DNA from: Tubiluchus corallicola
Taxonomy: Eukaryota > Animalia > Priapulida
Reading direction: 5' to 3'
Assembly (NCBI GenBank): GCA_030141605.1
Contig: JAQGDQ010000666.1
Span: 52,244 to 116,243, forward strand
Length of the DNA stretch: 64,000 nucleotides
The notes beneath the pieces were generated by a model. It ran no database searches. It had not been told where the DNA came from and saw nothing but the letters and a program-made list of their open reading frames with translations. Shown one piece after another: positions 4,666 through 64,000 of this stretch. Position 1 is the stretch's first letter; every line of letters starts with the position of its first letter. A program made the translations under genes and the position numbers.

Positions 4666-5172
4666 GGTACAATAAATAAATTTTTTGTACTTGGTATTGA
4701 AACTCATAGATCACATTTGTTCTTACATTCAAGATTATTCTGACTAGCTGGAACTTTGCCAAAAATTATGCACTTTCATTAAGTACAGTACAAGTTTAAT
4801 GTGCAACCAAGCATTCTTCAAAAAAGATAACACACTAAAAACTGTAGATGAAAATTATAACATTCTTTTAAAAAAGCTAAAAGACGTAAAATTGTACATA
4901 AAAAAATTATAAAGTTCTTTAAAAAAAAGAGAACAGGCGCAAAATCATGCGTAAAAAATTATGATATTCTATTCAAAAAGGCAACAGTCGGAACATTGTG
5001 CATAATAAATTATAATATTATATAGAAGAAGTAACAGACGGTAAATTTAAAATAAAAAAAATTATAAGGATCCTTTAAAATAAGGTTACAGACAGAAAAT
5101 TGCGCGTGAAATTATTATAACATTCAAAGGTAGCAATTATTGAAGTCGATAGCAAATAATAGATTCTTAGAG

Positions 5173-7086
5173 TCAGGTTCCCATTTTATGACGCCTCTGC
5201 AAGACAATCGTGTAGGTTAGGATGCATAAGATGCCAAACAAAACTATTGCAAATGCCGTGAGTATAAGAACCTCGTTCATGCTGTTACTAGTCATTGAAT
5301 CATCATGCAGTGCCTCTATCCATCCTTCAATTCTTTCTACTATTGTGGCCAATACTTCAACTGCACTGCACAAGTCCTTTTCATTGATTTGCACATTTCC
5401 ATCTATGCAGGCAAGAACAACAAAACTGTACTTTCCCAAGTGCAAATTTTTTAACATATCCGTGCCCGTAATGACGCCGATTCCCTGCCGTTGAGATTTA
5501 ATCACAAAGAAGTCACGCATAGTAAGTATTCGAAACTTAACAACATCTGCAGGTGTTGCCATGACTGCAACCTCCTCTTCGTCCTCGGAGACATTTTGCG
5601 CAAATGTGAAATCATAAAAGTCTTGTGAGAACTTTGGATTCTCGTTAATTTCTTTCAAAACGGTCACCTCAATATCAGCCTCCCTCACCCCATCCGCATT
5701 TGAAGCCACTGCAGCAAATTTTTGAATTCCTGGAGTCAGTCTTTTGGTGGTTTTTATTATACCATAGCCGTCCACTGTAAACTCACTTACTGATTCGCCA
5801 GTCTTCGTCTTCAGACTATAAGAAAACTCCGGGATGTTTGTCCGGGATACATCTTCGGCTTGGACGACCAATACGCTCCGTCCTACCGGAAGACTTTCCA
5901 CAACTGTAGCTTTGTACAATATTTGAGTAAATCCAGGGGGTGGTCCTTGAATTTGCACTTCAATATGTATGCCTGTCATTGCAGTGTAGTACTCGGGTTC
6001 GCCATCCTTCACGTAAGCGGCTCTGACCGGCAGGAAATACTCACGTTCTGTTATCTTTCCTATTATTTTTATATCCCCTACACTTTCCTCTGGCGTTTCT
6101 TTATTGTCTGCATTGACAAATTTAAAAGGTTTACTACTAACTTCCAGGCTGTATCTTATGTGTTCATCACTTTTTCCCGATTCGCCGTCGACGGCAGAAA
6201 TTCTGTTTGGCTTGACATTTATTATCGTCCCTACTGGGTCATTGTCTTTTATAGTGGCGTAATACATTTCTGCATCAAATACAGGATTGAAATGGACATC
6301 TGCTACATCGAAAGTGAATACATGTGTGCCTTCATTTGGAATAACGCCTGCATCACGCATCGTAACTGTGACATTATACTGCGACTGCTGCTCATAATCT
6401 ACTTCCTTGCGCAAGAAAATGTCACAATTCTTGGTACCATTTCTTGCTTTTGCTTCAAACTTGGAATTACTGTCCTTGATGAAACACGTTGAATAAATAT
6501 TGTAGGGAGCAGTCAGATCGTCATCTAGCACTCTAAAACTTGCTAACATTGTTCCAATCTCAGCTTTTTCCGAAACGTAACAGCTATCAGGCGTTTCTGG
6601 TGCTGCTCTTGGTGGGTGTTCGTTCATTGATTTTATAGTAACATTCATATTAATATCAAATTTTTCCTGTGGACGGGAGACTGATTTGCATTTTATTTTT
6701 ATTACCCAGTTTAAGATGGGTGGGTCACCTTGAGTGCTGAGATAGTCTGGTATAGACCTTTTAGTTCGTAAACTGAATGCGTATTTGTTATTTGCTGAGT
6801 TTCCCAAAGTGAACAGATGGCCTTGGTCTGACTTTAATCTGAATGTTACATGTTCGTAAGTGAGACCAGGTTGTTTACCAAAGAACAGAGTAAAGCTTCT
6901 GTTAGGCACACGATTGTCCCTAACTTTCCAATAATACTGCGATTTCATTACCTGATCACACCGACTTAAATCTATTGTTGAAGTCAAGACTACAAAACTA
7001 AGAAAAATTATCGTGGTAAGTACAATATTGTGCAAAGTGCTAGCCACAGCTTTGCCAGTGAAAATATGGCAAACATGATCAGACAT
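5173..7086 (-). CDS. Intronless cadherin-like membrane protein (about 5 EC-like repeats, TM, ~7-aa tail), copy 1
   Basis: 637-aa ORF; hydrophobic N-terminus; cadherin motifs NEHPP, VSE, LDDD, DYEQQ, AVDGE, NENPKF; C-terminal TM then RRHKMGT*. Confidence 0.9.
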   Translation of the reverse strand: MSDHVCHIFTGKAVASTLHNIVLTTIIFLSFVVLTSTIDLSRCDQVMKSQYYWKVRDNRVPNRSFTLFFGKQPGLTYEHVTFRLKSDQGHLFTLGNSANNKYAFSLRTKRSIPDYLSTQGDPPILNWVIKIKCKSVSRPQEKFDINMNVTIKSMNEHPPRAAPETPDSCYVSEKAEIGTMLASFRVLDDDLTAPYNIYSTCFIKDSNSKFEAKARNGTKNCDIFLRKEVDYEQQSQYNVTVTMRDAGVIPNEGTHVFTFDVADVHFNPVFDAEMYYATIKDNDPVGTIINVKPNRISAVDGESGKSDEHIRYSLEVSSKPFKFVNADNKETPEESVGDIKIIGKITEREYFLPVRAAYVKDGEPEYYTAMTGIHIEVQIQGPPPGFTQILYKATVVESLPVGRSVLVVQAEDVSRTNIPEFSYSLKTKTGESVSEFTVDGYGIIKTTKRLTPGIQKFAAVASNADGVREADIEVTVLKEINENPKFSQDFYDFTFAQNVSEDEEEVAVMATPADVVKFRILTMRDFFVIKSQRQGIGVITGTDMLKNLHLGKYSFVVLACIDGNVQINEKDLCSAVEVLATIVERIEGWIEALHDDSMTSNSMNEVLILTAFAIVLFGILCILTYTIVLQRRHKMGT

Positions 7087-7990: not shown

Positions 7991-8903
7991 TTTTATATCT
8001 TAGTCCGTGTGCCTAGACGAGACGGCCATATTGCTTTCGAGAACAGAACACCTGAACAAGGCTAGTACAGCATGGCTTCCGGGCAAGGCAAGATTTGTTC
8101 AGACAAAATGAAGAACAGCTTCAGCAAAAAACCGTACAACTGTGTATCTTCTCCTGAACAATGCAGTGGCACAATAGACCTTATTAACAGCCACAAAGTC
8201 ATCAGCTGTAATTCGCTTCTATGCTGTGATCAGTCTTCGTGCCTCTGGGTGATAAACTAAGTTATAGTTGTGCCGATGTTGTTGGATTTTTTAAAATCAC
8301 TTTGATTTACGATAACATCATTCTCCTATCTAGCAAACAGTGGCTCCATTTGGCGGTGAAATTATGACAAGAAACGCAAAAGTTATCTTCAGTTATATGG
8401 CCCGATTTTGCTAATACGATCAATGTTGACAAATATTTGTTTTTGGCACGGCAAATTGTTTGTAACCTAACAAATAAGTATTTTGTAAACAGTTACAGAA
8501 TTTTGTTTTTATAAAATTCGTTTGTTATCTTTATTATCAATGTTAGTGTGTTGAATGTGTGTATGAAGTTGGGTTTTATGCGAACACTAATACGTTAATA
8601 CATTTATCTTTTGTTTCCTGGGAGGTAGTCAAACACGTTTAAACCGTATCTATGATTCTATCAAAAATTACCATTAAGGGAGTAGAGTAAGACGCCATTA
8701 AATTCTTAAGCAGGCAGCAATTTTGATAGGAAAATTATGTGAGAAGTTATTCGGCGTCTCGTTGCAAAATGAAATTGGAGTAGGTGGAGCAGTGAGGAAG
8801 ATGCAGCCCAGTTGGTCTGCCATTGAAATAACCTTTGCTCACTTAATACAGTCATTATTATTCCTGCAAGCGCCCAGTGAAATGCACGTGTTTTACAGCT
8901 TAA

Positions 8904-9315
8904 CCCTTTCATACCCGTTGTATCCCGTGGGATACGAGAATATTTTCTGCCTTTAAAATTAATAAAATTTTGATTTAAGCCAATAACAATAGACTAAAAT
9001 GGTGATAAAATGGCAAACTAGAAAATCTACATAGCATAAAAAAACTGCGCAAGGTACAGTACTTTAGAGACGACTTTGTACAGATCAGCATAGCATGCAT
9101 ACTAAATGTCTTACATACTTTAAAAAATTATCAGCAGTTGCAAAATGAAGCTTCCATTGAATCCCAATGTATCCCGTGGGATACAGGCTATATTTAGCAC
9201 GCGGGCACAGGTAGAAAAAAATAATTATTATATGTAAACAAGATGGACATACTGAACAAAAGTACCAAGCCAAAATTTTTTTTCTTATTAAAAAAATAAT
9301 TTGGGACTGAAAGGG
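8904..9315. mobile_element. piggyBac-like MITE
   Basis: CCCTTT...AAAGGG termini flanked by TTAA on both sides; inverted copy at 28708-29156. Confidence 0.8.
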
Positions 9316-10010
9316 TTAAAGCAAACATCATTTAAACTCCCAGCCTGGCAACCTCATTTTACACCACGTTTGACTTTTGGCTCACACTGTTTTATTTATT
9401 TTTGGCAGTGTATATAGGTGAATGTTTTTACACCACGTCTTGTTTTGTAATAATCAGGTGTTATCGATGTATATGTTAACAGTTAATGAAAGTCCACTTC
9501 TTCGCCAAAGCCTGCCGACACCTGGAGGAAAGATCCACATGGATTATTCACATTCCAATTGTTTCCTTCCTTAAGAACCCAACAATGGAAAATCTTCATG
9601 GATCCGCGTATGCAAAAGTCAACCATACGATCATATTTGCTCAACTTTTACACAGCAAACACTTGAAATAACTCATTAAAGAGCCCTTGTGCAAACTGCA
9701 CACCACACCTATAACACACGTCGCTTTCCATTATTATTATTATTGCAAAATTTTCCAAGGGTATCCACCACGCAAGACTGAAAACGTATGTTATTTGCAA
9801 AATGATTACTCTATATTACAAGTTGCGTGAATAAACGCGTTACGTGGTGTGATTTATCAGGTAGACGCATAGCACGGAAGTATCTGCACCGATTGCACTT
9901 GAAAATGACAATAATGATAGCGATTGTTGTAATGGTATGGTAAAGCGGTAGAACCGCAAACCTGTGTCAAGAGAACTTGTTTTTGAAACGATTCAGGATA
10001 TGTAAAATCC

Positions 10011-11297
10011 TATGCCGGAACAACCAGATTGAACTAACATGTCTGTGAAGTTGGCAATATTAACATGATCATCGTGTCATCTCTGATAGCATTTTTACTG
10101 TACGGTACATATGCTCTGATAACGATCTATGCTGGAACAACTAGATTGAACTAACATGTCTGTGAAGTTCGCAATATTAACATGATCATCGTGTCATCTC
10201 TGGTAGCATTTTTACTGTACTGTACATATGCTCTGATAACGATCTATGCTGGAACTACTAGATTGAACTAACATGTCTGTGAAGTTCGCAATATTAACAT
10301 GATCATCGTGTCATCTCTGGTAGCATTTTTACTGTACTGTACATATGCTCTGATAACGATCTATGCTGGAACTACTAGATTGAACTAACATGTCTGTGAA
10401 GTTCGCAATATTAACATGATCATCGTGTCATCTCTGGTAGCATTTTTACTGTACTGTACATATGCTCTGATAACGATCTATGCTGGAACTACTAGATTGA
10501 ACTAACATGTCTGTGAAGTTCGCAATATTAACATGATCATCGTGTCATCTCTGGTAGCATTTTTACTGTACTGTACATATGCTCTGATAACGATCTATGC
10601 TGGAACTACTAGATTGAACTAACATGTCTGTGAAGTTCGCAATATTAACATGATCATCGTGTCATCTCTGGTAGCATTTTTACTGTACTGTACATATGCT
10701 CTGATAACGATCTATGCTGGAACTACTAGATTGAACTAACATGTCTGTGAAGTTCGCAATATTAACATGATCATCGTGTCATCTCTGGTAGCATTTTTAC
10801 TGTACTGTACATATGCTCTGATAACGATCTATGCTGGAACAACTAGATTGAACTAACATGTCTGTGAAGTTCGCAATATTAACATGATCATCGTGTCATC
10901 TCTGGTAGCATTTTTACTGTACTGTACATATGTTCTGATAACGACCTATTCTGGAACAACTAGATTGAACTAACATGTCTGTGAAGTTCGCAATATTAAC
11001 ATGATGATCGTGTCATCTCTGCTAGCATTTTTACTGTACTGTACATATGCTCTGATAACGACCTATTCTGGAACAACTAGATTGAACTAACATGTCTGTG
11101 AAGTTCGCAATATTAACATGATGATCGTGTCATCTCTGCTAGCATTTTTACTGTACTGTACATATGCTCTGATAACGATCTATGCTGGAACAACTACATT
11201 GAACTAACATGTCTGTGAAGTTGGCAATATTAACATGATGATTGTGTCATCTCTGCTAGCATTTTTACTGTACTGTACATATGCTCTGATAACGATT
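10011..11297 (+). repeat. 117-bp tandem array x11 made of the SDR 5' leader, ATG and signal-anchor codons
   Basis: ATG recurs at 10065+117n up to 11235; the last unit runs on into the SDR ORF. Confidence 0.95.
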
Positions 11298-12236
11298 TAT
11301 ATTTGCTTAAAGGTGATTAGCAAAGTTACACAACAGAATAAAAAAAGGTGGGTGTCAAGGGACATGACCGGAAGAGTTATCCTGATAACCGGTGCCAGTT
11401 CCGGCATAGGCTATGCAGCTGCACAAGAGCTGGCCAGAAAGAGGGCAAAGCTCATAATGGTTTGTTGGAACAAGGAACCAAACTTGACAGAATTGGTGGA
11501 GGAAGTGAGAAAAGCATCCGGTAACGAGGAGGTTTATCTGCAAAAAGTTGACCTGAGCAAGCCCAAGTCTGTCCGGAAGCTGGCCAAAATCATCCTGGAA
11601 GGAGAAAACAGGTTAGATGTTTTGATAAATAATGCCGGCGGTGTGTCCGTCAATGGTTCCAGCAAAGTGCATTGTGGGATCGGCTATTGTTACGCCACAA
11701 ACTTCTTTGGACATTTTCTCTTGACAAATTTGCTGCTTCCATTGCTGATGCAGACGCCAGAAAGCCGCATCATCAACGTGACGTCAGACGCGCACAGACG
11801 AGGGGAACTCGACTTGGACAATCTCGACTGCCAACGACCGGTTTCTGACCTTCAGGTCTACTGTAATGCAAAGCTGATGATGATTCTCTTCACCAACGAA
11901 CTGAGTGAGCGCTTACGTCATTGTCACGTGACTGCAAACTCTGTGCATCCAGGAATCTCATTAACCAGTTACTTGGCAGAAGCATGGGCGCACACACCTT
12001 GGCTGTCCAGAACTGTCATTCTGAATTTGATCGGTTTGTTTTTCAAATCTCCAGCCGAAGCGGCACAAACAGTAATATATCTTGCAACTGCCCAAGAAGT
12101 GTCCGGAGAAAGCGGTTCGTACTTTGTCGATTGTGGACATGCGTCGCCATGTCAAAATTCATTCCCAGACGATGATGATGCTATCAAGAGATTTTGGAAC
12201 TTGAGCGTCAAATTAACAGATTTGGATGAAGGATAA
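11235..12236 (+). CDS. Intronless short-chain dehydrogenase/reductase, retinol dehydrogenase 11-14-like
   Basis: 333 aa; N-terminal signal anchor; TGASSGIG, NNAG, TNFFGHFLLT, catalytic YCNAK, VHPG. Confidence 0.92.
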   Translation: MMIVSSLLAFLLYCTYALITIYICLKVISKVTQQNKKRWVSRDMTGRVILITGASSGIGYAAAQELARKRAKLIMVCWNKEPNLTELVEEVRKASGNEEVYLQKVDLSKPKSVRKLAKIILEGENRLDVLINNAGGVSVNGSSKVHCGIGYCYATNFFGHFLLTNLLLPLLMQTPESRIINVTSDAHRRGELDLDNLDCQRPVSDLQVYCNAKLMMILFTNELSERLRHCHVTANSVHPGISLTSYLAEAWAHTPWLSRTVILNLIGLFFKSPAEAAQTVIYLATAQEVSGESGSYFVDCGHASPCQNSFPDDDDAIKRFWNLSVKLTDLDEG

Positions 12237-12675: not shown

Positions 12676-13569
12676 CTTTACGATGCCCTAGGCTGATAGT
12701 TCTGTCCAGCCCATTTCTATTGTGAATTTATGGTTGTTTATGTAATGAGCAGATTAAGCAATTACTTGTGGTGTATTAGAAACACTGTTAATATGTGGTC
12801 ATTATCAATTACTTGTATATATTATGTTGAAGCAGGCTGCGGAACTGCTCGTTGTGTAACACCTTGCATCTGTTATCTAAAAGCTGAACACAGTAACTGC
12901 TTGTGGTGTGTTGTAAGATGCGCCCTTTACAGGAATATCAAAGTATGCATGCATTTTGAGGAGAATTTCTAAATTGTGATGCCATTGAAACTTTAGCGCC
13001 GTAGGCTATAGCTAGTAGCCTATTGGTTAATACGCCCCTGAGGATAAAATTCAACATATTGCATGCAGGCGCATGCGCAGCAAACTACTTTTACTTTTCA
13101 GACGGTTCCAATAGTTGAGCTCGTTTTATTGCTTGCTGCATTGTAATAATTACTGCAGTGATTCAGGCAAATAAACCCCAGGTAACCTGCTTTAGCTGTT
13201 TCTTCCGTGACTTCAACAGATAGATCGCAAGCGGCGTTTAGCCCCACCCACTTTGATGACGTAACACACGTAATCACAAACGTTCACCTGCTGCAAGTCG
13301 CTACAGTATGTGAGCACGCGTAAAAAACACGGAGCGTGGGTGTATGTTGTGATTCATCGGCGATTCCAGAAAATGTATCATTGGGATACAAACCAAATCA
13401 TAATTATTTGCAAAAGTTTAAGACCAAAGTGATTTTTTCATAAAAATTGACAAAACCATCGTTTAACACGGTTCCATCTAAAAACTATTCATTTATTCTT
13501 CTAAAAAAATATACTACAGCATAGTTTGTATATTTTTATCCAAAAATAGTCACAGTCCTTGAACATTTT

Positions 13570-14032
13570 GGAACTTAGAACGTAAGTTGCCAATCAGTGC
13601 CTTCAGTCTAAGAGGCATACTGGAAATTAGGTTTTGGCAGTACTCGGAAGTAATTTCTTCAACCCAAACGTCCTTGATAACTCTTCGCAAGACTTCAGCA
13701 CTTGATGGCTGCCTATCTGCCACCTTATCCTTCAGTATCTCCCAGAGATTCTTTATCGGATTGAGGTCCGGGCTGTTTCCAGGCCATTCAAGTATGGCGA
13801 TGTTCTTCTCCCTGAGGAAATTGGTGGTCACCTTCCATCTGTGACAAGGAGCTCCGTCTTGCATGAAGACTGAACACTTATAAACGCTCATATGCAACTC
13901 TAGTTTTTCCTGAAGCAGTTCGACGCGTACCTAGGACCATTCATAGTGGTATTGGGTGGGTGGAAGAAATAGATGCAGCTGTCCCAGAACAGGACATGGC
14001 ACCCCAGATCATCTGACTTGGAGGGTGTTTCA
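13570..14032 (-). pseudogene. Tc1-family DDE transposase C-terminal fragment
   Basis: FMQDGAPCH...WPGNSPDLNPIKNLW...NLISSMPLRL; upstream frameshifted KHP..MIWGAMS and TTMNGPRY. Confidence 0.85.
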
Positions 14033-17020: not shown

Positions 17021-24038
<7,018 letters not shown>

Positions 24039-26154: not shown

Positions 26155-53633
<27,479 letters not shown>

Positions 53634-53971
53634 CTGCGGAACAGATAAATGTTACGTTACTCCAAACACATTCTAAATGGTACCTAGTACATGAATCGAT
53701 CTGCGTGTAAAAGGTAATGATGATACTCTTGGATTTTTATCATTATAATATTAGCTTAACATTATTGCATTTATATTTTGTTACGATTTTGCATGAATTT
53801 TTGTTTTACGTACTTTTAATACGTTCATAAAATGCATGTTTACTTGTTTTTGAGTATACCGAGTTATTACTAAAATTTCTAAAATTCTAGTTACATGCAA
53901 ATTATGCTATATTAGCACGCTAGTACAATTCATTTCTTTATTATTTCTTTTTCTGCTCATTTAGAATGTGA

Positions 53972-55117
53972 AATTTTGTTTTTAGCGTTTTTCTTTTATG
54001 TTATACAGATGTAAACAAGTAGATAATTCAATATTTCATTATTTTTGATTGGTTATCGTCTGCACTGCATGCAAAATATTTATAAAAAACTGAGTTGGAG
54101 TTGCTGATACGATAACGCATGTTCTTCGCCACCCCTTCCCATTTGATTGGCTGTTATAATTATGCTACTAAGCTTTAATCGATGTTGTGTGTGGGGAAAA
54201 AGAATAAATGATTTGATTTGATTTTGATTTGGACCTGTACTGTTTCAATTTGCTGCTGCAAAAACCTCCCGCAAACTGCAAAACTGTAAAAAAAGTTCAG
54301 CGACAGACAAAAATGTCCTACGCGTAAATCTACTTTACTGCCATCTGTTGCGGTAAAGAAAGAAAAGAGCATAGGCAGATGTTTTGGATATAAGCACGTG
54401 GTGCCGCCTTGTGTTTGTTTATCAAAACATCATGATAGTACATCATGACGTTTTATGACAAAATTTTGTCAGTCGAGTTTTTTTAGCAAGTTAGTAGGAT
54501 GCGGCAAAGATGTAAGTTTGATTTCTTCATATTTCATAATATTATTATACATTTTCATTATAGCAGTTAATTATCTTTTTGACATTGGATTAGCAGAAAA
54601 TGTTTTTATTTGCTTCAGAAAAAACGAAGTCGAGTCGCACATAATATGTCAGTCAATCAGTCAGTCAGTCAGTCAGTCAGTCAGTCAGTCAGTCAGTCAG
54701 TCAGTCAGTCAGTCAGTCAGTCAGTCAGTCAGTCAAATATGTCATGATGTGATAGTGATTTTGGGATGAGACGATGACTGCCCATTTTGGACAATAAAAA
54801 ATCATAACTTACATCTAAAAGACTGTTAGACTTGTATTTAGCGCATGTCGCGCACAGCAGAGCTGATAAAGGAGGAACTAGAAAAGTAGTCACTCTACGG
54901 AGCAGATTTTCAAATTTTTCAACAATGGAGTCTTTACAGAATCAACCTGCACCACTCGTTTTTAAATGAGCGGGCATTTATGCGATTCATTTATCAAGGT
55001 TGACTGACTGAACTGTCGCGAAGTTCGCCTTAATTACTTCGAGTTGATTAACTTGACTTTTAAATATTACATTGTGTCTTCTTGCTCATCTCTTCATCTC
55101 ATTCCCTCCTCCCTTTT
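53972..55117 (+). repeat. Left arm of a long inverted repeat (dispersed element with internal (CAGT)n)
   Basis: Reverse complement of 62901-64000 apart from a few substitutions and microsatellite length; outer boundary cannot be fixed in this window. Confidence 0.95.
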
Positions 55118-55246
55118 AGTCTATTGTTATTGGCTTAAATCAAAATAACTATTAACAGATCAAGTAACTGTCAGTTTTAAAATTTTATTAATTTTAAAGG
55201 CAGAAAATATTCTCGTATCCCACGGGATACAACGGGTATGAAAGGG
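55113..55246. mobile_element. Terminal ~135 bp of the piggyBac-like MITE, cut off at the inverted-repeat arm
   Basis: Matches 29032-29156 and ends AAAGGG|TTAA. Confidence 0.8.
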
Positions 55247-56290
55247 TTAAACAAGCAAACAGAAATTTCTAGTTCAACAGGTTCAACATTAATTAACTTT
55301 AACTTTCCAAAAAATAAGAAAAACAACGTAGTAAGTAGGTGCATCTTTGCCTCCTTGTCTGGCTCAGACCATTAAGGACTCGCAATTTACATTTTTCACG
55401 GTGTAAATCTTAAAATTTAATCCAGCTCAAGTTTCTAGAGGAATTTTTAACCAACAAATTCTTCACACCTGTACAGTCAGGTAAGTCACGTACCTTGGGT
55501 CATGTGACATTCAACCTGCTGAAGCAAGACGTATTTCAAAGCAGCTCAAAGAGATGGAGCCACGATATGAAGAATTTGTTTTACCTTACTTATCTTACCG
55601 TTGCATACTGTAGGGAATTTTGCCAAGTATCTCGTTGGTCACGTGACCACGGGCACTCACCTGTGCAGATCTGTTTCTACCTGGGCAAGTGAGCTAGCTG
55701 GTAGACGTTAACAGGCTTCTTTAAAAGTAGTTTTTTATAGTATGATAGAGGCGTGATTTGTTAGATATATTGGTAAATACTAGATTTGCTTTATGGAGAC
55801 GTACGATGTAAGTAAATACATCATTTTGTATCATTTTGATTGAACGGATCACCTTGAACATTTTAGTTTAATTAATGACAATCTTATAATTCGATAGAAC
55901 GTGGTATAAATTAGTAAAATTACCAAATTAGGTTTACTTAATGTTTGTGTTTAGTAAAGTCTAGAACTACAGAATTGAATGCAAATATGTAAAATGGCCT
56001 TTTTTATTTATTTATTTTTCAATAGAAATGACGTATAAAACGCTACAATATTTTGTTGGAATATGGCAGACATTGATTGTAGTACAAATACTTTATTGAT
56101 TAGAAATTAAAAACTTTTTCTCCCTATTGCTCAGTATCATAAAATTTGTGAATTATTTGAATTAAAAACTCATTCAAATTAAATTCGTTTGTCCGTTACT
56201 CCGTCTCTCCACATTATAAATACAAAAGCATGCAAACTATGCGATTAAAATTTGCTGCTTTGTGCATAACGTATTTTCTTTTAATTTCAG

Positions 56291-56465
56291 CTGCACTCGT
56301 AACCTTGTTGATCGCGCTGACAACAGTGGCTCCCTCTTGTTGCAAATTGTCGTTCTTCCCGATCTTGCTGAGTGCATACAGTGCCACCTTGCGCAAAACT
56401 GATCAACTACTGATGCGATTGATGCGGCTCTACGAGAAGGCAGGTTGCCATCTTCGCGATTACCT
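56291..56465 (+). CDS. URB1: URB1 exon lying on the strand opposite to the rest of the gene
   Basis: TTTCAG| ALVTLLIALTTVAPSCCKLSFFPILLSAYSATLRKTDQLLMRLMRLYEKAGCHLRDY+CT |GTAAGT; resembles the URB1 LL.AY.ATL...DQ..L.LL..YE segment; CT+A gives Leu in frame with exon 53633-53471. Confidence 0.88.
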
Positions 56466-56492
56466 GTAAGTTTATTTCGTCCGTTTTTTAGC

Positions 56493-57300
56493 TCTTCTTC
56501 TTCTTCGCTGAATCACACGTCCAGGGACACGATTCTGCTCACCTCCCTATGCCGAGACTCCCTACATGCCGCAATGCCCCAAATGCATTTATTTCTAAGG
56601 ATCAATGCTGAAGTGTTTAAATCTTTCTGTGCAAAATCTAAATATGTTAACATTTGTCCCCCTGCAGGTTTTTTAGCAGGTTCTATGGCTTGTTGAAGAG
56701 CTATCTTTACTGGATTATCATCATCATCATCATCACCATCATTGTCATCATCATCATCCAATGAATCACACGTCCAGTGACATGATTCTGTTCACCTCCC
56801 GATGCCAGATCATCATCATCATCATCCAATGAATCATACATTCAGGGACATGATTCTGCTCACCTCCCTATGCCAAGACTCCCTACATGCCGCAATGCCC
56901 CAAATGCATTTATTTCTAAGGATCAATGCTGAAGTGTTTAAATCTTTCTGTGCAAAATCCAAATATGTTAACATTTGTCCTCCTGCAGGTTGGTTTTTTT
57001 AGCTGCTTCTATGGCTTTTTGAAGAGCTATCTTCACTGGATTATCATCACGTAGTCAAAGCATATGCACAATCCATCTTAAACGGCATCTTTTTATTTTT
57101 CTTGTCCAAGGTTGTTCTTTTATTTTTTCGTATAGACCTTTGTTTGAAATTTTCTTTGGCCATCTAATACCCAAAAATGTTTCTGTAATTTCGAATTTGA
57201 AACGAATCAATTTCAGCTTTATGATTTGCTTTTAATGTCCAGAGCTCAGAGTTATACAGAAATACAGTTTCAACTAAGGCTGATTTTTTAGCTCTACGAT
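56493..57300 (-). mobile_element. RTE-like LINE 3' fragment with tandemly repeated 3' ends
   Basis: LVETVFLYNSELWTL..EIDSFQ..WPKKISN..RLRW; 56510-56720 duplicated at 56830-57048; (GAT)n/(GAA)n tails. Confidence 0.75.
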
Positions 57301-57975
57301 TCCTGTACTGGTAAGTCAATATGGGAAATCTTCTATTGACTTTTGAGATGCTTGTCATATTGCTAAGCAATTATGATGCAGAGAAGCCTTGAATTCTAGA
57401 TAAATTTTGCACTAACTATAAAAGTTTTACTATTTTTGTTTATTTAGCCTAAAAATCATAATGCATTAAAACATACATTAAATACGTTAACTCCTTCGGC
57501 ACCCGTAAGGTAACAAATTTAATTTTATTCTTGTTTTTTTACGTTCTCTTGTCATTTGTTGTTATTTTCTGTACTGACCGTACCTCATGAGTACCAATCA
57601 AGTACGAACAAAATACAAAAAACACCAATCTAACCTTTATAGAGTCTAGCACTGCTCTCCTGCCTCTACTATCAAACAGTTAAATAAAAATTACACATTT
57701 TTTCCAGTGGCGTAGCCAGGTTCTGTAGTTAGAGGGAGCAAGTACAGAGAGAGAAAAAACCACTGTGACCTGTACCAAACAATTTTTAACATATTGATTA
57801 TACACTTTAATTTTGTGTTTTATCAAAATGTGGGAAAGATAAAGTTTTAATCGGAAAGTACATTATTGTTTTTTTTTTGCATTTAAAACGCAATAAAAAG
57901 TTTTACACGAAGCTCAAAAATCTCAATACATAAACACATAGGTTATTTAATCATTTTAATTTTATACATAAAATG

Positions 57976-58496
57976 CAGGGATGAGAATTTTCCGCGGATA
58001 CGCGGAGTTCCGAGTTATTGGAAGACCAGTAGTGCCATTTTTGTAAATCGCGTAAATTCGTTGAGAAAATTTTTACGGACCCTGTACATTGTTTCACAAG
58101 CTGACCGCTAGGTGGCAGGTCGTCACTTTGTTTACATCACGTACATCAGTGTAACCACATGTATATCTCTATGTATAAAAATATAGAATCAATTGTGTGG
58201 AGTTATTTGAGTCAATTGCAGACAGTTTTTATATACTTTTGCATAGGAGCGGCCAGTACTTAGGCATTTTTGATACAATTAGGTATCATGTATCCTTGAT
58301 AGTTGGGTATTTTAAATTATGCATGAAACAAGGCAATTGATATTTTAAGTCCACTTAGAGGCTCTCTATGGTTACAAAATTGCAATTTGTTGCTGACTCC
58401 AATGGGACTTTGCCCATCAACCCCATTGGGGGCCTAAGTGGCCCCAAAACTCCCAGCCTGTTTCAGAGTTTTTACAATTTGTCATTCTCATCCCTG
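57976..58496 (+). mobile_element. CAGGGATGAGAA-TIR MITE with 6-bp TSD
   Basis: AAAATG|CAGGGATGAGAAT ... ATTCTCATCCCTG|AAAATG. Confidence 0.88.
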
Positions 58497-58515
58497 AAAA
58501 TGATTGCAAAATGAT

Positions 58516-61102
58516 GCATGTGTCAACTACAACCGTTTCGTTCGTCTGCACTTTATTCTAACAAAGTAATCTGCATGTGTCATGAACTAACTACAACCGT
58601 TACGTTCGTCTACAGTTTATTCTAGCAAAGTAATTTGCATGTGTCATGAACTAACTACAACCGTTACGTTCGTCTGCACTTTATTCTAACAAAGTAATCT
58701 GCATGTGTCATGAACTAACTACAACCGTTACGTTCGTCTACAGTTTAATCTAACAAAGTAATCTGCATGTGTCATGAACTAACTACAACCGTTACGTTCG
58801 TCTACAGTTTATTCTAGCAAAGTAATTTGCATGTGTCATGAACTAACTACAACCGTTACGTTCGTCTACAGTTTAATCTAACAAAGTAATCTGCATGTGT
58901 CATGAACTAACTACAACCGTTACGTTCGTCTGCACTTTATTCTAACAAAGTAATCTGCATGTGTCATGAACTAACTACAACCGTTACGTTCGTCTACAGT
59001 TTAATCTAACAAAGTAATCTGCATGTGTCATGAACTAACTACAACCGTTTCGTTCGTCTACAGTTTATTCTAACAAAGTAATCTGCATGTGTCATGAACT
59101 AACTACAACCGTTACGTTCGTCTGCACTTTATTCTAACTAAGTAATCTGCATGTGTCATGAACTAACTACAACCGTTACGTTCGTCTACAGTTTATTCTA
59201 GCAAAGCAATCTGCATGTGTCATGAACTAACTACAACCGTTTCGTTCGTCTGCACTTTATTCTAACTAAGTAATCTGCATGTGTCATGAACTAACTACAA
59301 CCGTTACGTTCGTCTACAGTTTATTCTAGCAAAGCAATCTGCATGTGTCATGAACTAACTACAACCGTTACGTTCGTCTACAGTTTAATCTAGCAAAGTA
59401 ATCTGCATGTGTCATGAACTAACTACAACCGTTACGTTCGTCTACAGTTTAATCTAACAAAGTAATCTGCATGTGTCATGAACTAACTACAACCGTTTCG
59501 TTCGTCTACAGTTTATTCTAGCAAAGTAATTTGCATGTGTCATGAACTAACTACAACCGTTACGTTCGTCTACAGTTTAATCTAACAAAGTAATCTGCAT
59601 GTGTCATGAACTAACTACAACCGTTACGTTCGTCTACAGTTTATTCTAGCAAAGTAATTTGCATGTGTCATGAACTAACTACAACCGTTACGTTCGTCTA
59701 CAGTTTAATCTAACAAAGTAATCTGCATGTGTCATGAACTAACTACAACCGTTACGTTCGTCTGCACTTTATTCTAACAAAGTAATCTGCATGTGTCATG
59801 AACTAACTACAACCGTTACGTTCGTCTGCACTTTATTCTAACAAAGTAATCTGCATGTGTCATGAACTAACTACAACCGTTACGTTCGTCTACAGTTTAA
59901 TCTAACAAAGTAATCTGCATGTGTCATGAACTAACTACAACCGTTTCGTTCGTCTACAGTTTATTCTAGCAAAGTAATCTGCATGTGTCATGAACTAACT
60001 ACAACCGTTACGTTCGTCTACAGTTTAATCTAACAAAGTAATCTGCATGTGTCATGAACTAACTACAACCGTTACGTTCGTCTGCACTTTATTCTAACAA
60101 AGTAATCTGCATGTGTCATGAACTAACTACAACCGTTACGTTCGTCTACGTTTATTCTAGCAAAGTAATCTGCATGTGTCATGAACTAACTACAACCGTT
60201 ACGTTCGTCTACAGTTTAATCTAACAAAGTAATCTGCATGTGTCATGAACTAACTACAACCGTTACGTTCGTCTGCACTTTATTCTAACAAAGTAATCTG
60301 CATGTGTCATGAACTAACTACAACCGTTACGTTCGTCTACAGTTTATTCTAACAAAGTAATCTGCATGTGTCATGAACTAACTACAACCGTTACGTTCGT
60401 CTACAGTTTAATCTAACAAAGTAATCTGCATGTGTCATGAACTAACTACAACCGTTACGTTCGTCTGCACTTTATTCTAGCAAAGTAATCTGCATGTGTC
60501 ATGAACTAACTACAACCGTTACGTTCGTCTACAGTTTATTCTAGCAAAGTAATTTGCATGTGTCATGAACTAACTACAACCGTTACGTTCGTCTGCACTT
60601 TATTCTAACAAAGTAATCTGCATGTGTCATGAACTAACTACAACCGTTTCGTTCGTCTACAGTTTATTCTAACAAAAAAATCTGCAATCTGCATGTGTCA
60701 TGAACTAACTACAACCGTTACGTTCGTCTACAGTTTATTCTAACAAAGTAATCTGCATGTGTCATGAACTAACTACAACCGTTACGTTCGTCTACAGTTT
60801 ATTCTAGCAAAGTAATCTGCATGTGTCATGAACTAACTACAACCGTTACGTTCGTCTACAGTTTATTCTAACAAAGTAATCTGCATGTGTCATGAACTAA
60901 CTACAACCGTTTCGTTCATCTACAGTTTATTCTAGCAAAGTAATCTGCATGTATCATGAACTAACTACAACCGTTACGTTCGTCTGCACTTTATTCTAAC
61001 AAAGTAATCTGCATGTGTCATGAACTAACTACAACCGTTACGTTCGTCTACAGTTTATTCTAGCAAAGTAATCTGCATGTGTCATGAACTAACTACAACC
61101 GT
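58516..61102. repeat. 64-bp minisatellite (~40 units)
   Basis: Unit CATGTGTCATGAACTAACTACAACCGTTACGTTCGTCTACAGTTTATTCTAACAAAGTAATCTG. Confidence 0.95.
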
Positions 61103-61730
61103 GATTCTTAGATCATGTGGGCAATGGAATAGGTGGGAGAGCTGTTACTGAATTAAACTTTGCCCCCACAATTATTAAGCCTGTTAGCTTTTTCAATCAA
61201 ATAATAAAAAATACAATCATTAACAAGTCACGAGAAATTATATTATAATATCTATACTAGCAGGTGCAATCACAGAACCAAATAACATAATTATTATCAA
61301 TACTGATTTAGATTTAATATTTTATTTCAAACTTCACAAAGTTCATATACACATCACAAATTAATACAAAATAATACAATAAATCATGACACACAACAAT
61401 AACACAAATAACAATTAACGACAAACTACGCCAATGACATCTAATTACAGAAGTAAAGTTTGCATCACTGTTTAAAATGTTCTTGCATATAAAATTTTCA
61501 CTCTTATTCAGCCTGACGTATAAACTGTATGCACATTTTCTGTGAATCACATCAAAATAAATAATATTAAGTCTAGTAGAAATATATCTAGCGCTCGTAT
61601 CATATGAAAAGTTAAACAGCTTCCGTGTTGATACATTATATACAATCTTAAGTTTGCTAAGATTGTAAGAATAAAAATGTCTCCAAGTGGACATACAAGA
61701 AAAAGTAGTGCAGTTAGCATTAAACAACTG

Positions 61731-62846
61731 AAATACCATTATACTAAAACACAGCGGAACAATTAGCCTGGCTAGCCACAGGTCTAGATGTTCAAGGTAG
61801 ACCTGTCTTACACAGCTTAAATACAGAAAACTAGAACACTATTAATGTAAAAGGTCATTCAGAAGCAAATAACATAATTATTATCAATACTAAAATACCA
61901 TTATACTAAAACACAGCGGAACAATTAGCCTGGCTAGCCACAGGTCTAGATGTTCAAGGTAGACCTGTCTTACACAGCTTAAATACAGAAAACTAGAACA
62001 CTATTAATGTAAAAGGTCATTCAGAAGCAAATAACATAATTATTATCAATACTAAAATACCATTATACTAAAACACAGCGGAACAATTAGCCTGGCTAGC
62101 CCACAGGTCTAGATGTTCAAGGTAGACCTGTCTTACACAGCTTAAATACAGAAAACTAGAACACTATTAATGTAAAAGGTCATTCAGAAGCAAATAACAT
62201 AATTATTATCAATACTAAAATACCATTATACTAAAACACAGCGGAACAATTAGCCTGGCTAGCCACAGGTCTAGATGTTCAAGGTAGACCTGTCTTACAC
62301 AGCTTAAATACAGAAAACTAGAACACTATTAATGTAAAAGGTCATTCAGAAGCAAATAACATAATTATTAACAATACTAAAATACCACTATACTAAAACA
62401 CAGCGGAACAATTAGCCTGGCTAGCCACAGGTCTAGATGTTCAAGGTAGACCTGTCTTACACAGCTTAAATACAGAAAACTAGAACACTATTAATGTAAA
62501 AGGTCATTCAGAAGCAAATAACATAATTATTATCAATACTAAAATACCACTATACTAAAACACAGCGGAACAATTAGCCTGGCTAGCCCACAGGTCTAAA
62601 TGTTCAAGGTAGACCTGTCTTACACAGCTTAAATACAGAAAACTAGAACACTATTAATGTAAAAGGTCATTCAGAAGCAAATAACATAATTATTAACAAT
62701 ACTAAAATACCACTATACTAAAACACAGCGGAACAATTAGCCTGGCTAGCCCACAGGTCTAAATGTTCAAGGTAGACCTGTCTTACACAGCTTAAATACA
62801 GAAAACTAGAACACTATTAATGTAAAAGGTCATTCAGAAGCAAATA
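61731..62846. repeat. 162-bp tandem array (~7 units) with an internal hairpin
   Basis: Unit contains ACAGGTCTA..TAGACCTGT inverted repeat. Confidence 0.92.
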
Positions 62847-62900
62847 AGTACAGTAAGATTAGAGGGAAATTTAAGCTATATCAATGCTGTAACAAGCCTA

Positions 62901-64000
62901 AAAAAGGGAGGGAATGAGATGAAGAAATGAGCAAGAAGACACAATGTAATATTTAAAAGTCAAGTTAATCAACTCGAAGTAATTAAGGCGAACTTCGCGA
63001 CAGTTCAGTCAGTCAACCTTGATAAATGAATCGCACAAATGCCCGCTCATTTAAAAACGAGTGGTGCAGGTTGATTCTGTAAAGACTCCATTGTTGAAAA
63101 ATTTGAAAATCTGCTCCGTAGAGTGACTACTTTTCTAGTTCCTCCTTTATCAGCTCTGCTGTGCGCGACATGCGCTAAATACAAGTCTAACAGTCTTTTA
63201 GATGTAAGTTATGATTTTTTATTGTCCAAAATGGGCAGTCATCATCTCATCCCAAAATCACTATCACATCATGACATATTTGACTGACTGACTGACTGAC
63301 TGACTGACTGACTGATTGACTGACATATTATGTGCGACTCGACTTCGTTTTTTCTGAAGCAAATAAAAACATTTTCTGCTAATCCAATGTCAAAAAGATA
63401 ATTAACTGCTATAATGAAAATGTATAATAATATTATGAAATATGAAGAAATCAAACTTACATCTTTGCCGCATCCTACTAACTTGCTAAAAAAACTCGAC
63501 TGACAAAATTTTGTCATAAAACGTCATGATGTACTATCATGATGTTTTGATAAACAAACACAAGGCGGCACCACGTGCTTATATCCAAAACATCTGCCTA
63601 TGCTCTTTTCTTTCTTTTCCGCAACAGATGGCAGTAAAGTAGATTTACGCGTAGGACATTTTTGTCTGTCGCTGAACTTTTTTTACAGTTTTGCAGTTTG
63701 CGGGAGGTTTTTGCAGCAGCAAATTGAAACAGTACAGGTCCAAATCAAAATCAAATCAAATCATTTATTCTTTTTCCCCACACACAACATCGATTAAAGC
63801 TTAGTAGCATAATTATAACAGCCAATCAAATGGGAAGGGGTGGCGAAGAACATGCGTTATCGTATCAGCAACTCCAACTCAGTTTTTTATAAATATTTTG
63901 CATGCAGTGCAGACGATAACCAATCAAAAATAATGAAATATTGAATTATCTACTTGTTTACGTCTATATAACATAAAAGAAAAACGCTAAAAACGAAATT
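62901..64000 (-). repeat. Right arm of the long inverted repeat (runs off the window)
   Basis: Reverse complement of 53972-55117. Confidence 0.95.

Follow-up and report, generated by a model that had tools for sequence, protein, structure and literature searches.

A backwards URB1 exon between near-identical inverted arms in Tubiluchus corallicola, with evidence for and against a one-off rearrangement

How can an intact exon come to lie on the strand opposite to the rest of its gene? We address this question for the gene URB1 in a 64,000-nt stretch of the priapulid Tubiluchus corallicola (assembly GCA_030141605.1, contig JAQGDQ010000666.1, positions 52,244 to 116,243 of the forward strand), hereafter the window. 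URB1 runs on the minus strand, with the exception of one exon, e1 (56291–56465, plus strand), which sits in a 7.8-kb single-copy spacer (55110–62906) that is inverted relative to the 3′ part of the gene and enclosed by two inverted arms. A preliminary description of the locus had put forward four explanations, namely a recurrent or somatic flip-flop switch, trans-splicing aided by pairing of the arms, a heterozygous null inversion allele, and a mis-oriented contig. Our analysis leaves the private inversion or null allele and the mis-oriented assembly in the lead, while the switch and the trans-splicing that had made the headline are unsupported. We give about even odds to a genuine rearrangement, an inverted duplication or inversion that arose once, on one haplotype; the likely origin of the backwards exon is a single fold-back (template-switch) event on one chromosome copy. 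We class the feature as one more example of a structural rearrangement of a known type, and an error in the assembly is its close rival.

The identity of the gene follows from exon e4 (51566–51838, minus strand), which holds the start of the NopRA1 domain and matches the Pfam family of that name (E 6e-19); the ESM Atlas agrees with NopRA1, and seven of the eight top homologs looked up are named URB1 or NPA1, the eighth being nameless. A profile built from 19 homologs (2178 columns) places e1, 175 nt long with AG/GT ends, at columns 1433–1490 and exon e2 (53471–53633, minus strand) at columns 1488–1544, directly after e1 in the protein. This neighborhood recurs among 152 retrieved homologous proteins, none of them from T. 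corallicola or a close relative (best identity to a window exon, 76% over 29 residues): e1 was matched in 43 and e2 in 40, and the two were adjacent in 33 of the 34 proteins that matched both. Profile placement and this adjacency rule out e1 as a chance or paralogous match and bear out the earlier claim that a URB1 exon on the wrong strand belongs directly before 53633–53471.

Profile and splicing together also delimit e3 (52839–52929), e5 (48046–48152), e6 (45514–45657) and e7 (43916–44025), all on the minus strand, as is a late coding piece at 26347–26817 (columns 1958–2080). All seven exons, e1 to e7, carry AG/GT ends and are without decay, and splicing them in silico gave 353 codons with no stop. 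As the preliminary description had stated, e1 is intact and joins e2 in the right phase, and skipping it would shift the frame. Its report that the window holds no minus-strand copy of e1 was likewise upheld, since blastn, tblastn and profile searches ruled out a second copy within the window. The upstream part of URB1, profile columns 1–1432, is not present in the window. Word-indexed protein searches with the e4 piece, the late exon and e1 returned no match, a weak test that covered proteins of up to 2000 residues only. A PDB sequence search found nothing for e1 and only HEAT-like designed repeats for e4, and metagenome scans for the e1 protein and for a 24-nt pattern from the core of the arms gave no matches.

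We next turn to the arms themselves. The left arm (53972–55109) consists of URB1 intron DNA and inserted repeats, and pairs in inverted orientation with the right arm (62907–64000), such that 53972–55109 aligns to 64000–62907; neither arm is assigned a strand, nor is the spacer between them. The alignment contains seven substitutions (left-arm positions 53977, 54006, 54010, 54354, 54772, 54980 and 55090) and a 44-nt length difference in a 4-nt microsatellite, in agreement with the earlier count of about seven substitutions plus a microsatellite difference over at least 1.1 kb. Identity is 99.4% (divergence 0.64%), and the arm length of at least 1.14 kb is a minimum, as the outer end is fixed only by the right arm leaving the window. 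Six of the seven substitutions are transitions, three lie at CpG, and the closest is 20 nt from the junction; all five homopolymer runs compared have the same length in both arms, and no identical tract between the visible arms exceeds 343 nt. Because of these transitions, CpG changes and equal homopolymers, real DNA is favored over a single-molecule library chimera. Both arms bear likely derived changes, and no further full copy of the arm was found within the window.

The two inner edges of this structure are unequal. On the right, the arm continues into the intron downstream of e1, a join that is likely ancestral, as an e1-to-e2 intron of about 7.9 kb would require. On the left, the arm stops and the sequence enters a miniature inverted-repeat transposable element (MITE) part-way. 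The derived junction at 55110–55119 (plus strand) comprises three extra bases followed by a 6-nt microhomology (55114–55119), which is common to the MITE and to the natural continuation of the arm at 62898–62903 (minus strand); sharing of at least 6 nt was reached by 0.19% of random junctions in 200,000 draws. The broken MITE retains only its right 137 nt (55114–55250, plus strand; TTAA-CCC end type), is cut exactly at the arm edge, and keeps only its right end (55244–55250), with no third copy of its other 327 nt anywhere in the window. Two intact copies of the same element, the reference copy at 28704–29160 (plus strand) and a second at 8900–9319 (minus strand), have TTAA target sites and CCC-starting terminal repeats at both ends, and we take the element to be piggyBac-like.

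All of the visible structure follows from this one derived junction, which explains a left flank and arm followed by a reversed spacer and arm. The preliminary description was right about the arms and the reversed exon, and did not recognize the microhomology at the left inner edge, where the arm passes into a broken MITE. We propose that, some 1.2 kb upstream of e1, a DNA end within the MITE may have annealed at the six shared bases to intron DNA 7.8 kb away, and that the annealed end would then have been extended back through the arm. The outcome would be an inverted duplication of at least 1.1 kb of URB1 intron, with the 7.8-kb spacer and its e1 turned round; a staggered-break inversion is an alternative route that could give the same visible result.

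Both routes have described counterparts. Human fold-back duplications (Hermetz et al. 2014, PMC3907307) show 2–8 nt of microhomology and single-copy spacers of 766–70,466 nt. The present locus resembles them in its single-copy spacer, which at 7.8 kb falls within that range, its 6-nt inverted microhomology and its few extra junction bases. It differs in that the human cases are large, de novo and usually accompanied by terminal deletions, whereas here the far end lies outside the window and the arms are 0.64% apart. For staggered-break inversions, Ranz et al. 2007 (PMC1885836) describe duplication at a single breakpoint as common, with sizes up to ~1.9 kb. Here, too, an inverted segment is bordered by an inverted duplicate of DNA that was ancestrally non-repetitive: the core of the arm is the intron adjoining e2, ancestrally single and non-mobile, and other parts of the arm are inserted repeats. 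In contrast to the inversions of that source, which are large and fixed between species, this one spans 7.8 kb within one gene, would break that gene, and has its second breakpoint beyond the window.

Evidence on the nature of the arm core came from public contigs compared over 51500–55985. Six runs were listed, of which four DNA-type runs (X1–X4), representing at most two samples, contain part of the stretch; the best of them has 0.55 of its words and may not derive from the assembled animal. Among the contigs listed, a divergent haplotype in X1, X2 and X3 (two samples) joins 53689 to 54233, and a contig in X4 joins 54359 to 54857. The arm core is therefore URB1 intron DNA, plain intron adjoining e2 in the divergent haplotype, and the rest of the arm is inserted DNA. 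This rules out the arms as transposon terminal repeats or as two insertions of one element. The preliminary description had overlooked this intron status of the arm core in another haplotype, which, together with the microhomology junction into the broken MITE, points to a one-off duplication more than to an evolved cassette. In the contigs of all four runs, loose ends before 55114 continue into the MITE.

The divergent haplotype lies about 6% apart from the window in e2. Its e2 carries 13 listed differences in 12 codons, nine silent and three changing an amino acid, with no stop (from 40 of 198 variant rows), and these mostly silent changes suggest that it is likely a working copy of URB1 and that other working copies exist. 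Its depth in X1 exceeds that of the window-like type by a factor of 1.3 to 2.2 at five paired places, a pattern of roughly one window-like to two divergent copies that hints at polyploidy or pooling. More generally, two haplotype classes coexist over 51500–54950, possibly through triploidy, hybrid origin, a second locus or the pooling of animals.

If both arms were present on sampled chromosomes, contig depth over the arm should be doubled, with the caveat that depth is not copy number and that these ratios are a weak measure drawn from the table rows listed. Among window-like contigs, depth over the arm divided by depth over the flank came to 0.94 in X1, where the arm stood at 164 and six flank values (four from contigs with at most one difference, two by subtraction using the variant and gap tables) averaged 175, and to 0.72 in X2, with three values for the flank. 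For X1, two arms would predict ~325 instead of 164. For divergent contigs, the ratios were 1.05 (X1), 0.94 (X3) and 2.27 (X2). Given the lack of doubling in four of the five comparisons, the species is likely not fixed for a short two-arm cassette.

A one-off event would leave the rearranged copy without normally spliced URB1, unless e1 is present in the correct orientation beyond 64000, for instance through an inverted triplication. That further copy, or other haplotypes with an intact e2, would then supply the function of URB1. The preliminary description held that flipping the segment restores a normal gene, which is an assumption resting on DNA beyond 64000: should the right arm extend 339 nt further, a plus-strand copy of e2 would be expected at ~64339–64501, and for this reason restoration by flipping can only be assumed.

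Several observations weigh against the one-off event. URB1 is regarded as essential, and an arm divergence of 0.64% is old for a null allele of such a gene, unless the arms come from two alleles or other copies compensate. Exons e1 to e7 are free of decay, an argument of little power at such low divergence. At position 54354, every contig in all four runs has the right-arm base, among the contigs listed, which leaves the base of the left arm there uncorroborated, and none of those listed over 51500–55985 crosses the arm–MITE junction or a whole arm. The divergent type in X2, with its ratio of 2.27, runs opposite to the other four depth comparisons, and a long duplication encompassing both arm and flank would likewise leave their depths equal.

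Some of these observations are what a misorientation or misjoin in the assembly would produce, and we consider such an error possible, though short of probable, in two forms that share this weight. In the first, a real and harmless duplication left the gene intact with an extra arm in the upstream intron, and the assembler reversed the spacer between arms reaching far beyond 64000; such a duplication would reconcile aged arms with intact, in-phase exons. In the second, the additional arm derives from a fold-back chimeric read or from a join of two haplotypes. The undoubled arm depth, the left-arm base at 54354 that appears in none of the contigs listed, and a strongly polymorphic sample whose second haplotype is ~6% divergent in e2 all fit this explanation. 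Inverted chimeras arise in whole-genome amplification and in long-read libraries (PMC9984789, PMC6218980). Amplification chimeras are mostly inverted and intramolecular, with parts less than 10 kb apart and overlaps of 5–8 nt (PMC9984789), and they leave false inverted duplications in assemblies (PMC6218980). With one fold-back junction, a 6-nt overlap and a distance of 7.8 kb, the locus matches this description. On the other hand, that distance is far from the 250–300 nt peak reported in PMC9984789, and the arms of a chimera should be identical bar sequencing errors, whereas the substitutions here look natural, with transition- and CpG-type differences close to the junction that a single-molecule chimera would not be expected to yield; mixing of two haplotypes by the assembler could mimic them. 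Accurate long reads would also easily resolve a longest identical stretch of 343 nt, and multi-kilobase tandem arrays are resolved elsewhere in the window.

Returning to a real rearrangement, the inverted arms raise the question of whether the event was single. If the duplication is old enough to segregate, homologous recombination between the arms could flip the spacer now and then, and the assembly would have caught the gene-breaking orientation. We regard this as unlikely. Long, highly identical repeats are what inverted-repeat recombination calls for, and arms of at least 1.1 kb, 99.4% identical and 7.8 kb apart are a plausible substrate; the likely derived changes on both arms further indicate that these have aged. 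Recurrence is frequent among human inversions between inverted repeats (11 of the 16 analyzed; PMC3961182), and the polymorphic inversions treated there are like this locus in having near-identical inverted repeats of ~1 kb or more that could flip gene exons. In those human systems, however, the repeats sit on normal chromosomes and both orientations are documented, whereas here the second arm seems absent from the other sampled haplotypes and a single orientation is known. The second orientation was not seen among the short contigs, none of which spans an arm, and the absence of doubling in four of five comparisons from two samples suggests that the substrate is missing from the sampled haplotypes. 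The identical tracts are also short, at most 343 nt.

The intron 1 and intron 22 inversions of F8 (int1h and int22h) are likewise flips between near-identical inverted repeats carried on normal chromosomes, with both orientations documented.

The intact splice sites and frame of e1, together with complementary arms that could pair in RNA, had suggested that the exon is used where it lies, being transcribed from the plus strand and joined by two arm-aided trans-splicing steps, or that a programmed somatic inversion restores the gene. We give this hardly any credence. The precedent is mod(mdg4), in which opposite-strand exons are trans-spliced (PMC4387717), common 5′ exons being joined to alternative 3′ exons from independent promoters (PMC12692577), in a process that depends on a U1-binding motif, the TSA core (PMC4387717). 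What the locus has in common with mod(mdg4) is an exon whose strand is opposite to that of the remaining gene. Unlike those alternative 3′ exons, e1 is a single internal constitutive exon, and its use would call for a separate plus-strand transcript and for two trans events in each mRNA. With up to two mismatches allowed, the TSA core had no match in the donor intron (56466–62906, plus strand), a weak test given that the motif comes from Drosophila, and three matches in the whole window, where chance would give 1.9. The literature searched held no account of trans-splicing in URB1, judging by titles and the starts of abstracts, and a search for trans-splicing with inverted repeats turned up only organelle genomes and gene editing.

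A programmed switch fares no better, as the junction looks accidental and recent, and the arm core is plain intron in the divergent haplotype. Pfam found no family in 10 of the 15 longest stop-free stretches (at least 70 codons) of 53634–64000, and Rfam found none in 52000–64000. A site-specific recombinase cassette is unsupported, as the arms are kilobase-long intron copies rather than short sites and those 10 of 15 nearby stretches gave no Pfam match. The flip-flop switch of the preliminary description thus lacks support in view of the left edge, where a microhomology leads into a broken MITE, and of the same Pfam result, and its trans-splicing lacks support in view of the two trans events required around one constitutive exon and of the donor intron free of a TSA-like motif. 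That the two-arm structure is real and heritable, with URB1 made from it through somatic flipping of the arms or arm-guided double trans-splicing, strikes us as very improbable; it would amount to a major finding only if the inverted state were shown, by RNA or by spanning reads, to be functional.

As the scar of a one-off event, the locus is most likely a clean example of how one microhomology junction makes inverted repeats within a gene and can break one copy of it. Gene models drawn from assembly GCA_030141605.1 would split URB1 or leave it out. Should the broken copy be real and its age match the 0.64% divergence, it would exemplify an essential gene knocked out in one copy that divergent haplotypes shelter.

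Large tandem arrays are unusually abundant in the introns of URB1 (29510–62847), their units measuring 29, 55, 60, 64, 158, 162 and 168 nt. Two of these arrays lie in the spacer (strand not assigned): a 64-nt unit in 40 copies at 58525–61102, in the intron downstream of e1, and a 162-nt unit in 6.9 copies at 61727–62847, beside the right arm. A 60-nt array of 18 copies at 31601–32771, inside a URB1 intron, has long open frames on both strands and is probably a minisatellite. Just downstream of e1, at 56540–57040, ~300 nt are locally duplicated in direct orientation, together with an ATC microsatellite. A dispersed element of 400–520 nt occurs in three copies that are 91–92% alike (57969–58488, 48516–49034 and 17869–18274), and two of these, at 48.5 kb and 58 kb, enclose e2–e4 and e1 as another inverted pair of greater age.

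Elsewhere in the window, an uninterrupted short-chain dehydrogenase frame lies at 11208–12233 (plus strand; Pfam adh_short, E 2e-32). It adjoins a 117-nt tandem array of 11 copies (10010–11300), the last unit of which is the start region of the dehydrogenase, so that its first codons are repeated upstream. A DDE_3 transposase remnant (E 4e-11) is found at 13553–13930 (minus strand), and a 2-kb dispersed element is present in two copies in opposite orientations, at 5056–7081 and 38367–40404, that are 79% identical.

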